The notes below the pieces were generated by a model. That model saw only the letters and a program-made list of their open reading frames with translations, did no database searches and had not been told where the DNA came from. Positions 16,820-22,761 of a stretch of DNA of 64,000 nt are shown here, piece by piece. Source of the stretch: Candidatus Norongarragalinales archaeon (GTDB lineage Archaea > Micrarchaeota > Micrarchaeia > Norongarragalinales > Norongarragalinaceae). Every line of letters starts with the position of its first letter. Position 1 is the stretch's first letter. The stretch is from contig JAWABJ010000001.1 in assembly GCA_038884755.1 (NCBI GenBank), positions 96,001-160,000 of the forward strand, written 5' to 3'. The position numbers were made by a program, and so were the translations under genes.

Positions 16820-17004
16820 CAACCCACCGCCCGAAAGACACCTGGAAAAAGAACAGTTTTTTCTGAAAGGGTTTTTACGGTCTTCTCGTTAATAATGCTA
16901 TTCCCGCTGCAGAGGGGGAAATGCTCTATACGTTTAAAAACTTGAGTGCGGTTAAGTCTCACAAAACTCGCTTTTCCGTTTTTGGCTATCGGGTGTCGCG
17001 CAGA

Positions 17005-17625
17005 ATGCCTTGGAAGAAACTGTTGAACTGGCTTTTCGGCCTTTTTGGACGCAAAAAAGAATTCAGCTTGGGGCTGTACGGCCCTCCCAACGCCGGAAAG
17101 ACGACGCTTGCGAATCGCATTTCCCTCGACTGGACTGGCGAGCCTGTTGGGAAAGTAAGCGAAATCCCGCACGAAACCAGGCAGGTGCAGAAGAAAGAGC
17201 GCGTGGAAATAAGGGTGGACGGAAAGCGCCTGACCATGAACCTTTTGGACATGCCCGGCATTGCGACCAAGGTTGACTACCGCGAGTTCATCCCATACGG
17301 CATTGAGTTGAAGGAAGCGCAGCAGCGGGCTAAGGAAGCCACCAAGGGCATTATCGAGGCGATAAAGTGGCTTGAGCACGTTGACGTTGCTCTCGTGGTG
17401 CTGGATTCGACCGAAGATCCTTACACGCAAGTCAACCTCACTATCATCGGAAATCTGGAAGCACGCAAAATTCCCGTGATCATAGTCGCGAACAAGTGCG
17501 ACGCTAAAAAGGCGAAGCCCGACAAGATAAAATCGGCTTTCCCGCAGTACAAGATAGTGGAAGTTAGCGCGTTGAAGGGGGACAACATCCACAAGCTTTA
17601 CAAGGAGATTGCCGCCGCGGCGTGA
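17005..17625 (+). CDS. Small GTPase, OapA/ArvA-like
   Basis: GPPNAGKT, PHETR, DMPG, NKCD, SAL motifs; N-terminal amphipathic helix MPWKKLLNWLFGLF; followed by OapB/OapC-like genes. Confidence 0.88.
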   Translation: MPWKKLLNWLFGLFGRKKEFSLGLYGPPNAGKTTLANRISLDWTGEPVGKVSEIPHETRQVQKKERVEIRVDGKRLTMNLLDMPGIATKVDYREFIPYGIELKEAQQRAKEATKGIIEAIKWLEHVDVALVVLDSTEDPYTQVNLTIIGNLEARKIPVIIVANKCDAKKAKPDKIKSAFPQYKIVEVSALKGDNIHKLYKEIAAAA

Positions 17626-17641
17626 GAAGGTGTTCGAAACA

Positions 17642-17989
17642 ATGGCTGTGCAGATTGAATTCGTTTCTTCGAAAACCTTGAGGCAATTGTCGAGCGAAAA
17701 GAAAATCGCCATGGTTTTGGACAGCGTAAAGAAAAACTCGATTCTGGTTTTGGAAGAGCCTCTGACGCTCGATGAAGAGCGCATGCTCATTCGCGAGACG
17801 ATGAAAATAATCACCAAGAGCTTTCCCGGAATAGAAATTTCCTCCCTCTCGCCGCAAGAGGACGACTTGCGTTCTCAATTCATCCGCCTCATCGGCGGGA
17901 AGACGAGCGGGCTTACGGTAGTCGGCCCGGCTCACTTGGTCAAGGAAATGAAGAAAGACCCGAACAAGCTAAGGGTTTTAACGAAATAA
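17642..17989 (+). CDS. OapB/ArvB-like (DUF2073) protein
   Basis: ILVLEE.L..DEE..LI..TM.....F.GIEI and GLTVVGPA motifs. Confidence 0.85.
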   Translation: MAVQIEFVSSKTLRQLSSEKKIAMVLDSVKKNSILVLEEPLTLDEERMLIRETMKIITKSFPGIEISSLSPQEDDLRSQFIRLIGGKTSGLTVVGPAHLVKEMKKDPNKLRVLTK

Positions 17990-18017
17990 CCCCTTCTTTT
18001 TTTCGAGGCGTTTTTGA

Positions 18018-18347
18018 ATGCACAAGTGCGTGCGCTGTTCCACAGTATACCAAAACAATGCCAAGGAGCTTCTCAGCGGATGCCCTTGCGGGGCGCGCGT
18101 GTTCGTTTTCCTCAAGGACGGAAAGGCGGCCGAGTCTGAAGAAGACTACTCGTGGTTGGAGGCCGAGTTCAAGTCTCTGGCGAAAGACAAGCCCGTGAGC
18201 GTGGATTCGGACTCGGCAGAAAACCTGCGAATTCTCGAAAAAGGAGCGTACGAACTGGACGTGAAATCTCTCATGGGCGGAAATCCGCTAGTGGTTAAAA
18301 GCGAGAAGGGAATTTACTACATCAAAGTGCCGCACTTCAAGCAATAG
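18018..18347 (+). CDS. OapC/ArvC-like Zn-ribbon (DUF2072) protein
   Basis: HKCVRC...LLSGCPCG..F and E..RI...G.YELD...L...G.Y.I motifs. Confidence 0.85.
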   Translation: MHKCVRCSTVYQNNAKELLSGCPCGARVFVFLKDGKAAESEEDYSWLEAEFKSLAKDKPVSVDSDSAENLRILEKGAYELDVKSLMGGNPLVVKSEKGIYYIKVPHFKQ

Positions 18348-20481: not shown

Positions 20482-20677
20482 CCCGGGGTGCAGGCGGCGC
20501 AGTAACGCAGCCGCCGTGCTATCCCGGGAATCGGGAGGAGCAGAAAGAAGGAGGAACCAAAGTTCCTCCTTTCTAAACCTCTTCCTTTTACCTACTTCTC
20601 CCTCTCTACACCTCTGTGTAGCGAGGCGTTGGCGTTTTTCTTTGGGGTTGACAGACCTTTCTTTCGCAAAGAAAGGG
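20482..20677. other. Structured intergenic region with four consecutive hairpins (candidate ncRNA, terminator or palindrome mosaic)
   Basis: Stems at 20482-20528, about 20542-20574, 20601-20626 and 20656-20676. Confidence 0.55.
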
Positions 20678-20680
20678 ATG

Positions 20681-21037
20681 TCAGTGCCCGATCATGACGG
20701 TCCTCTTGTTTTCGACAGTGACCGCCCTTTTGAGTTTGACCAGCTGGTAGTAGTAGGTCGCGAGGAAGAACGCGGGGAGCGCGAGCAAGTTCATGTTGAG
20801 CAAAAGCCAGGCTCCGACTATCGCGGAGAGGATTGCGTAAACCCTGTAGCGGATGAACATCTTGTAGTTGGGCAAGTGGTCCATCATGTACTCGTAACGC
20901 GTTCCCATCACGAGCAAAGGGCGTTTTGCCTCCGCTACGGTACCGTAAATGCCCACTTGCCCGGGGTAGGGGGTTTGCACTGGCACTGCGGAAGGCATTC
21001 CCGCGGTTTCCTTCAATTCCGTTTGTTCGTTAGCCAT
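20681..21037 (-). CDS. Uncharacterised 2-TM membrane protein (operon gene 6, paralog family)
   Basis: SD GAGGT; VPVQT and TRYEYM motifs; hydrophobic hairpin. Confidence 0.8.
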   Translation of the reverse strand: MANEQTELKETAGMPSAVPVQTPYPGQVGIYGTVAEAKRPLLVMGTRYEYMMDHLPNYKMFIRYRVYAILSAIVGAWLLLNMNLLALPAFFLATYYYQLVKLKRAVTVENKRTVMIGH

Positions 21038-21047
21038 TTTTCATACC

Positions 21048-21446
21048 TCATTTCGTGGAAATCAGCGCTTTGCTTTTAAACCATTCGACGCTCCAAGCGT
21101 AATTAAGCAAAACCTGGCTCCAGAAGTAACCCGTCAAATAAGCGAAGAAAGCGGCAATCCACAAGTTGATGCCGTAAAAGAATATCACGGCGATTAGCGA
21201 AAGCACGCAGTACAACCAAGCTTTGTAGACCGTTCCGAGAGACCCTTCCTTCCATTTTTCCCCAAACCAGTCAGCAATTATTTCACCCCTCGTCTTGACC
21301 ATAAGAGAGTTTACGGGCGTGCCGTCCCCGAACAGCTTGTCGGACTGCATTGGAACGTACAAGTTGGGCGCGGTGCTGGCGCTGAATGCTGTCGCCTGTC
21401 CTTTCGCGCTTGCGTGCGCTTTGAATTCCTTCAAGCTTACCGCCAT
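21048..21446 (-). CDS. Uncharacterised 2-TM membrane protein (operon gene 5, paralog family)
   Basis: SD GAGGGG; VPMQS and TRGEII motifs; hydrophobic hairpin. Confidence 0.8.
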   Translation of the reverse strand: MAVSLKEFKAHASAKGQATAFSASTAPNLYVPMQSDKLFGDGTPVNSLMVKTRGEIIADWFGEKWKEGSLGTVYKAWLYCVLSLIAVIFFYGINLWIAAFFAYLTGYFWSQVLLNYAWSVEWFKSKALISTK

Positions 21447-21458
21447 TCAAATCCCCTC

Positions 21459-21668
21459 TTAAATCCAGTTCAAAACCATTGCCGAATAGGCAATGCTCGC
21501 GAATACTATCGCCCAAATCACTTCGTCGGGCAGGATGAAACTAGGCCCGAACATTGCTTGTTCGAAAGTCCACCCTCCGTTGGCTATGTTCACGAGGCCC
21601 GCGTCTTCAAGCAGGCTAGTTATCTGCATTGCAATGCCCGGTTCGTGGGGCTTGAATTCTTTAGACAT
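21459..21668 (-). CDS. Small protein with C-terminal TM helix (operon gene 4)
   Basis: 69 aa; SD-like GGTG; tight packing in operon. Confidence 0.7.
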   Translation of the reverse strand: MSKEFKPHEPGIAMQITSLLEDAGLVNIANGGWTFEQAMFGPSFILPDEVIWAIVFASIAYSAMVLNWI

Positions 21669-21780
21669 GTTTCACACCACACTTGCAAACGGCGTATTCC
21701 CGCTGGTAGTCGAAGGCTTTCGCTGCCACCGCGGTCCACGCGTTTTTTTCTCCCACGAAGTACACTATTTCTTTTTGCAT
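21661..21780 (-). CDS. 39-aa microprotein (operon gene 3, not in ORF track)
   Basis: MQKEIVYFVGEKNAWTAVAAKAFDYQREYAVCKCGVKHV; ATG is 1 nt after upstream stop, and its end overlaps the next ATG. Confidence 0.6.
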   Translation of the reverse strand: MQKEIVYFVGEKNAWTAVAAKAFDYQREYAVCKCGVKHV

Positions 21781-21781
21781 T

Positions 21782-22147
21782 TTAGTCCACCAGCACTATA
21801 GACCTGTACTTTCCGAAGGTTCTGGTAATGAACGCGTCCATCCACGCTATGTCTTGAAAGCGAGCTGCCAGCGCTATCATTAGCAGTCCGCCAGGCGGGA
21901 AAGCTTGCAGCGTGAGGATTCCGAATATGAAGCAGAATATGGCTTTCACCATGTTTTTGTAACGGTCTTTTTCGTACCCCACGTATTCCGCGAGGTAGTC
22001 GTACCTCTTGTGTTGCTTCATGAAAGGCGGGCTTCCCGGTTTTACGTACAAGGGCAAGAACGACCTTTGAGGTTGGCCTGCGGCTGCTCCTGCGCCGGTA
22101 GACGCGCCGATTTGCTGCACTTCCCTCACGGGCACTTCAGCAGTCAT
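21782..22147 (-). CDS. Uncharacterised 2-TM membrane protein (operon gene 2, paralog family)
   Basis: SD GAGGT; LPLYV and KRYDYL motifs; hydrophobic hairpin. Confidence 0.8.
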   Translation of the reverse strand: MTAEVPVREVQQIGASTGAGAAAGQPQRSFLPLYVKPGSPPFMKQHKRYDYLAEYVGYEKDRYKNMVKAIFCFIFGILTLQAFPPGGLLMIALAARFQDIAWMDAFITRTFGKYRSIVLVD

Positions 22148-22158
22148 TTTTCACAACC

Positions 22159-22521
22159 TCAAGTTCCTTCCAAAATCTCGCGCTTTTTGTTGACTTCATT
22201 GAAGAAAAACGCTTTCCTGGCGTAAACTCCCCACGCCCAGCCTGCCATCAAAGCCAAAACGCCCGAGACCAGGATACTCCAGCCCAAGGCGTAAAGCGCC
22301 CCAACGCCAAGAACTACGGCCGCAACGCGGGAAATCTGGATGAGCCTCCAATTGCCGAGTTCGAAGTCCATGTACTCCTGCCTGGTTGAAACCTTCATTA
22401 CCCCTTTTCCTTCGGTTTGCACTGGAAGCCATACGGGAGAATAAGTCCACTCGTGGCCCGAAGCGTGGCTGTTGCCTTTAGCCATGCCCTTCAAACCCTG
22501 CAAGTCGGTCTTAACTATCAT
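22159..22521 (-). CDS. Uncharacterised 2-TM membrane protein (operon gene 1, paralog family)
   Basis: ATG at 22521 with SD GGAGG; LPVQT and TRQEYM motifs; hydrophobic hairpin. Confidence 0.8.
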   Translation of the reverse strand: MIVKTDLQGLKGMAKGNSHASGHEWTYSPVWLPVQTEGKGVMKVSTRQEYMDFELGNWRLIQISRVAAVVLGVGALYALGWSILVSGVLALMAGWAWGVYARKAFFFNEVNKKREILEGT

Positions 22522-22562: not shown

Positions 22563-22570
22563 TTTATAAA
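22563..22570 (-). promoter_or_regulatory. Putative TATA box of the six-gene membrane operon
   Basis: TTTATAAA about 40 nt upstream of the ATG at 22521. Confidence 0.55.
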
Positions 22571-22761
22571 CTTGTCGGTAGTAACAACTAGGAGGGCAAA
22601 GCGCCGGAAAACAGCCTTGCAGCCTATATTATATAGGTTTTCGAGCATAAGGGTGTAAGGCTGATCGTTTTCGGCCGGCTTTCGGAAATAGGGGTAGTGA
22701 AGTTTAAATACCGTCGATTCTTTCCGAAGGATTTTTCGACAGGAAGCGAATTTTGGAAAGG

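Follow-up and report, generated by a model that had tools for sequence, protein, structure and literature searches.

The locus considered here raises the question of what is encoded by a run of six short ORFs, matching no recognised family and lying divergently from an S-layer protein gene. In the window (i.e., the whole 64,000-nucleotide stretch of DNA analysed), these ORFs, termed A to F, occupy positions 20681..22521 of the minus strand. An earlier reading of the letters alone, referred to below as the sequence-only reading, had described them as tightly packed with gaps of 12 nt or less. This proved correct, as the successive gaps from A to F are 11, 1, -8, 12 and 10 nt. Gene A (22159..22521; 120 aa) and gene E (21048..21446; 132 aa) encode hairpin paralogs of one type (A/E), while gene B (21782..22147; 121 aa) and gene F (20681..21037; 118 aa) encode hairpin paralogs of a second type (B/F). 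ORF C (21661..21780) corresponds to a soluble-looking product of 39 aa and gene D (21459..21668) to a protein of 69 aa with a single C-terminal hydrophobic helix. All six ORFs present codon scores of 0.22-0.31, like those of long genes (0.23 +/- 0.08).

The operon, its promoter region and its neighbours

The sequence-only reading had treated all six ORFs as a single operon, with the two smallest encoding accessory subunits. ORF C is, however, conserved in the five examined genomes of the window's genus and was seen there only, as an insert between B and D, whereas elsewhere D directly follows B, mostly at a distance of 1-17 nt. The conserved operon is hence composed of the five genes A, B, D, E and F, with ORF C lying outside it, and of the two proposed accessory subunits only D, likely to be such a subunit, is conserved. 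In 43 non-redundant loci, a count that leaves out duplicates, truncated loci and one divergent copy, these five genes appear in one order, with no loss or reshuffling. Conservation of the cluster in relatives, which had been set as a test of the sequence-only reading, was thus observed. In five loci an extra F-type gene separates D from E, and in two such a gene lies past E. The divergent copy (L054:3820-6438; genome G013 of genus g10) is a strongly diverged operon that holds a second promoter box inside the cluster. In addition, genome G040 contains two operons, one of which (L013; G040:C41) shares gene lengths and scores with the operon of G015, a genome from another family (L012; G015:C32); this second G040 operon is probably a mis-binned contig.

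A TATA box had been placed at 22563, and its presence was confirmed (TTTATAAA, 22570-22563, minus strand). It is the last part of the predicted operon promoter (22563..22586, minus strand), in which a TGTTACTACC box is followed by a 5-nt spacer, a G and the TATA box. The Shine-Dalgarno sites, most of which had been described as clear, correspond to matches of 4-5 nt, a length that 102 of 251 ATG genes reach as well. All 36 wide loci carry the element TGTTACTACC-N5-GTTTATA ahead of A (37 sites in total). With at most one mismatch allowed, the box pattern occurs in 63 of the 68 genomes of the order, well in excess of what the reversed pattern gave as a control. The element may be read as a TATA box preceded by an upstream site for a putative factor. 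In the window's genome (G000), the box is present as one strong copy only; no second strong copy was detected, and none was found just upstream of ftsZ-like ORFs. In relatives, 20 secondary sites precede unrelated genes, and the idea that the box defines a regulon was rejected, with no consistent target set having emerged. By eye, several of the genes preceded by secondary boxes (L186-L205) are membrane-related, namely those for a secretion-type ATPase, an SPFH protein and a rhomboid protease, as well as DUF92 (in three g10 genomes) and a homologous single-helix gene (G007 and G017).

When codon usage was compared with length-matched windows, F fell at the 99th percentile and A, B, D and E at about the 70th, and the five genes, when pooled, ranked at the 92nd percentile among 268 long genes. 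This suggests operon expression that is at most moderately high, and so modest a codon signal was counted against the main explanation offered below.

The divergent neighbour in the window encodes an S-layer protein (PF05124, TIGR01564), while the downstream neighbour encodes CTP synthase (pyrG), which holds this position in 16 of 32 loci. Apart from pyrG, no conserved neighbour was found in 21 loci, and no VirB4, ATPase or binding protein was linked to the operon. The region between F and pyrG (20540-20685) contains three stem-loops, including a perfect 9-bp hairpin directly past the F stop codon (20656..20676, minus strand), the first of these stems, and a 10-pair stem. This region folds with a z of -3.5, with 0 of 200 shuffles being equally stable, and it is possible that the stems correspond to a transcript end, a terminator or a small RNA. 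Two genes away from the operon (window positions 16921-18347), genes for an oapA-like GTPase, oapB and oapC, together an origin-associated cluster, were noted; this adjacency is not kept in relatives.

Paralogy, anatomy and distribution

The relatedness of the encoded proteins was addressed by hhalign comparison of 45-sequence alignments, one per gene, with reversed sequences as controls. E-values of 8.7e-21 (A-E), 1.9e-18 (B-F), 1.8e-13 (A-F), 1.2e-11 (A-B), 5.9e-10 (E-F) and 1.1e-8 (B-E) were obtained, as compared to 8e-4 to 0.07 for the controls, while D gave 0.04-0.33 against the four. Judged from these profiles, A, B, E and F are genuine paralogs of one another, with D being unrelated to them, such that the description of four ancient tandem paralogs sharing one architecture stands. 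The pattern points to one gene having given rise to a pair, with that pair having then been duplicated to yield A-B and E-F. In FastTree analysis, the split of A and E from B and F received an SH support of 0.995 in a balanced set from 14 genomes; in an earlier, larger tree (155 sequences) the same split received only 0.19, a value counted against this duplication scheme.

The core common to the four paralogs begins with an extended segment, a T-R pair and an amphipathic helix that passes into a hydrophobic arm, and continues with a turn of 1-4 residues, a second arm, a second amphipathic helix, a basic residue and a short hydrophobic tail. Within the alignments, P33 and R47 of A are invariant and W58, G98 and R114 near-invariant; in B, R115 is invariant and R48, Y51, E54 and G112 are near-invariant; in E, R53, Y74, A102 and G106 are invariant; and in F, R47 is. 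In D, the invariant residue is E21, in LLED. As to the motifs proposed earlier for all four paralogs, the arginine of R-x-[ED], corresponding to that of T-R, is indeed invariant and shared, but the acidic residue after it is unconserved in A and F orthologs. Likewise, the proline motif is invariant in A and E but weak in B, and in F the proposed AVPVQT sits in an N-terminal extension that is missing from most F orthologs. Uncharged spans, read from the sequence, comprise residues 66-101 of A, 69-95 of B, 76-110 of E and 66-100 of F, i.e., 27-36 residues for both arms together. In the 45-sequence alignments, these hydrophobic spans contain no conserved acidic or polar residues, and no domain outside the membrane was found in any of the four.

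AlphaFold2 models of A (helices 47-78 and 83-111; pLDDT 81) and F (helices 47-81 and 83-107; pLDDT 79) are hairpins with a turn of 1-4 residues, in which the core reaches a pLDDT of 94-98 and the terminal segments are unstructured. Foldseek and VIA-align searches with these models returned generic hairpins only.

A profile built from the four paralogs matches 64 of the 68 genomes of the order, 60 of these with at least four matches, and all 22 genomes that are at least 90% complete. In G030 (79% complete), the lone match is a distant paralog, termed G below, and the main operon was not found. Among 400 Micrarchaeota genomes, about 350 lie outside the order, and nine of the latter gave single weak matches (E 5e-7 to 7e-4). 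Eight of these were rejected, aligning only to the hydrophobic part of unrelated proteins. The ninth (L108:1345-1785; G263, from another order) is a 146-aa frame matched by the combined profile with an E-value of 4.8e-5 that presents T-R followed by a two-helix hydrophobic segment, and is the sole candidate outside the order to span the motif. Two matches outside the order, obtained with the F profile, could not be recovered at the level of ORFs. In 1.84 billion cluster representatives, the four-paralog profile, which barely detects G and misses its partner H and so would let relatives that distant escape, finds 151 proteins; the 150 matches listed (53-235 aa) classify, in comparable numbers, as A (34), B (27), E (40) and F (49). 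By source name, the homologs are assigned to Micrarchaeota and Candidatus Norongarragalinales. The hairpin family is also present in L086, according to PMC8561730 the type genome for Ca. Norongarragalina meridionalis.

That the proteins belong to no recognised family was supported by searches of Pfam, NCBIfam and PHROGs, in which none of the six ORFs gave a match near cut-off, and by a PDB sequence search, which gave no match beyond generic hairpins. A member-by-member Pfam scan of A and F (45 each) identified no consistent family, the best being DUF1634 (6 of 45). The ESM Atlas contained three bacterial clusters without names at 0.84-0.85, under the bar applied, and no usable named match. No longer fused forms of B were found, which is weak evidence, nor were matches obtained in tblastn searches of F against plasmids and A against phages, or of G against viral contigs. 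No published description of the operon was found, although the tables of PMC8204110, PMC9258230 and PMC12892359 may list it among unnamed families. As far as these searches reach, the operon is a real, order-defining and undescribed membrane system, for which a mechanism is proposed below.

Predicted assembly and alternative explanations

The sequence-only reading had proposed that the paralogs form a hetero-oligomer. In a four-chain prediction of A, B, E and F, the score was 0.49, as compared to 0.02 for the best control, and three runs gave 0.50, 0.49 and 0.16, with contacts agreeing by at least 83% between runs and a partner pLDDT of at least 69. Of 157 solved complexes, 116 reach the mark applied to this score, as do 2 of 215 mismatches; at 0.60 or below, it is reached by only 18 of the 157 solved complexes but by both mismatches, such that a pass in this range is weak. 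When E was replaced in the job, F fell to 0.02 with a pLDDT of 51, and when F was replaced, the confidence of the other chains dropped from 73-75 to 50-52. As a complex was already likely from the paralogy and the invariant gene order, the prediction adds a small gain. Taken with the one run of three at 0.16, it lends the proposed hetero-oligomer weak backing. Overall, the proteins probably do form one heteromeric membrane complex.

In the mechanism that we favour, A, B, E and F, likely with D as accessory, would form one complex of two pseudo-symmetric pairs that wedges into the membrane from the cytoplasmic side, bending or thinning the bilayer. Both termini of each hairpin would be cytoplasmic, and the amphipathic helices, together with two conserved basic residues, would rest along the membrane surface and hold on to lipid phosphates. 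As a rule of thumb, two straight crossings of a bilayer need roughly 40 or more residues. At 27-36 residues, the uncharged hairpin would fall short of this and could span a normal bilayer twice only by distorting it. The extended N- and C-terminal segments may fold only upon assembly. Counted against such a wedge is that helix tilt or snorkelling could let arms of 16 residues cross the membrane. The whole mechanism, i.e., a heterotetramer of short hairpins with D that bends or thins the membrane, is accordingly offered as tentative.

A further consideration is a second pair of paralogs, G and H, found at a separate locus in 17 of the 68 genomes of the order. Neither they nor any part of the cassette around them is present in the window's genome, and no G-H pair was found outside the order in 400 genomes of the phylum. 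By hhalign, G is related to B (6e-8), E (8e-8), and A and F (2-3e-5), with reversed controls at 5e-3 to 0.16; H is related to G (3e-15) and does not rise above control when compared directly with A, B, E or F. In the tree, G and H group with E and A (0.91-0.92). The G-H locus shows that a paralog pair is a unit able to exist in the absence of both D and a second pair. A variant of the operon's promoter box is associated with G in the window's genus. Of 25 G-H loci, 16 contain a divergent TrmB-type regulator and 14 a small membrane gene, J, with PEP-utilizer mobile-domain proteins and a CDPS/Dit1-like family each being found in 11. J, the third gene of the cassette, shows no detectable homology to D (E 0.14). 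The CDPS/Dit1-like proteins (400-950 aa) contain an FWGGHKE motif and have no Pfam match over cut-off, those to CDPS and DIT1 falling below it (E about 1e-4); they occur in 15 genomes, 12 of which are among the 17 with G-H. Loci L133:1259-2478, L174-L185 and L166-L173 contain the CDPS/Dit1-like enzyme, a TrmB- or Lrp-type regulator, G-H and J; as many as four PEP-utilizer mobile-domain proteins were noted in tandem in the cassette. By eye, G-H in G030 (L183:743-5581) comes right after genes for HMG-CoA reductase, HMG-CoA synthase, thiolase and DUF35. The cassette, on which no literature was found, looks like an undescribed system for small-molecule synthesis or modification.

With G-H lying among small-molecule enzymes, transport fits better than membrane shaping, a point counted against the wedge. 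This is the main support for the proposal that the eight helices of A, B, E and F instead make up an uncoupled, passive conduit, with the cytoplasmic arginines as its gate and a lipid or a small anionic solute as its cargo, and that G-H is a two-subunit version serving the cassette. The apparent mevalonate-pathway genes that G-H follows in G030 agree with this, and four distinct subunits would suit an asymmetric site. Still, the hydrophobic spans offer no conserved polar lining and the main operon is linked to neither an ATPase nor a binding protein, while the co-occurrence of G-H with the enzymes involves linked genes in related genomes and is hence not independent. The sub-threshold CDPS and DIT1 matches, and the failure of H alone to exceed control, also count against a conduit, which we consider unlikely, if still the main rival of the wedge.

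Less likely again is that the paralogs serve as inner-membrane anchor subunits, akin to VirB3 or PrgI or to pilus accessories, of a larger machine encoded elsewhere, such as an apparatus for secretion or host contact. PrgI and VirB3, small membrane subunits of type IV secretion systems, are about 100-130 aa long and contain two helices, with T-R before the hairpin. In size, two-helix topology and the P..TR preceding the hairpin, the proteins described here resemble them, but with T-R set about 17 residues further from the hydrophobic span. Moreover, PF12666 (PrgI) had 0 matches in the window's genome at E <= 1, scans of 45 A and 45 F sequences detected neither family at E <= 0.1, and no conserved neighbour of the VirB4 kind was found in 21 loci. 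Nor would a phylum-wide machine obviously need an anchor restricted to one order.

It could also be that the paralogs act separately, or as interchangeable homo-oligomers, the operon reflecting no more than tandem duplication and shared regulation. The complex run that scored 0.16 would fit this view, as would the duplication of F without the others in some families. Given 43 complete loci with neither loss nor reshuffling, and the loss of confidence in the other chains upon replacement of F, this seems improbable.

Finally, the sequence-only reading had argued for an envelope role from the control region shared with the S-layer gene. The 2.5 kb preceding the operon contain an S-layer-like gene in only 8 of 35 loci, namely that of the window and seven others, all from the window's family, and the promoter box travels with the operon regardless of the neighbour. 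The S-layer link is local, and the envelope or remodelling role retains its plausibility from protein anatomy, not from this neighbour. A module for assembly or export that is coupled to the S-layer, under joint regulation by the shared region, is suggested by the divergent S-layer gene here and in the seven same-family loci but, with the link missing in 27 of 35 loci and the box being single-copy in the window's genome and oriented to the operon only, is very improbable.

Returning to the membrane-remodelling complex, it is conceivable, at much the same strength as the wedge itself, that the operon encodes an order-defining machine, a heterotetramer under a box of its own that remodels or opens the membrane, for instance in host contact or in lipid or metabolite uptake, with G-H having been re-used in a regulated small-molecule cassette. 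The genomes concerned measure 0.7-1.6 Mb, yet every high-quality genome sampled retains the five unannotated genes in fixed order together with a promoter of 21 nt, making the operon a clean marker for the order Norongarragalinales. To our knowledge, few dedicated membrane proteins are known for cell shaping or exchange with other cells in DPANN archaea. The operon may bear on how these organisms shape very small cells and exchange material, even if function is here read from anatomy and the family does not extend beyond a single uncultured order. According to PMC12892359, the Norongarragalinales have a richer metabolism than most DPANN and may depend less on a host. At under 600 residues, the proposed complex is expressible and so directly testable.

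Comparison with known membrane hairpins

Several known proteins offer points of comparison. The c (K) subunit of A/V-ATPases is a hydrophobic helical hairpin that forms rings. This assignment was ruled out, as no conserved membrane-embedded carboxylate exists in A, B, E or F; a true c subunit is encoded elsewhere in the window's genome (C1:290466-290645). When the A model was searched with VIA-align, ESCRT-III and PspA ranked first (Z 8.8, rmsd 3.6, 78 residues aligned), with a Z that lies below the value of about 13 needed for helical bundles and is tied with those of unrelated hairpins. Furthermore, the ESCRT-III and PspA hairpins are soluble, whereas those of A, B, E and F are hydrophobic. 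YqjE of E. coli K-12 (YqjE/Holin-X) shares with the present proteins T-R, a long helix leading into the hairpin and a basic tail; with YqjE represented by a single sequence, hhalign gave E-values of 0.3 for the A profile and 0.08 for the F profile.

The closest parallels in terms of the proposed action are found among membrane-shaping hairpins. Reticulons and REEP proteins are wedge-type membrane hairpins with both termini on one side. Mic10, the core subunit of MICOS, is described in PMC10803214 as a small oligomeric hairpin with both termini on one side and glycine motifs in both helices. When such motifs were sought here, GxGxG was found in 6 of 45 A sequences and in 0 of 45 for each of B, E and F, while GxxxG was found in 37 of 45 A sequences and in 6, 13 and 5 of those of B, E and F, respectively. 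Glycine motifs in both helices, as in Mic10, are thus missing from the family, a point counted against the favoured mechanism. There is also no sequence match to Mic10, and the present system comprises four fixed paralogs and D, in an archaeon. As with Mic10 and the reticulons, the proteins are small and predicted to form helical hairpins, the termini of which would lie on the same side and which would be oligomeric. The complex may act as do the hairpins of Mic10 or the reticulons while being a member of neither family.
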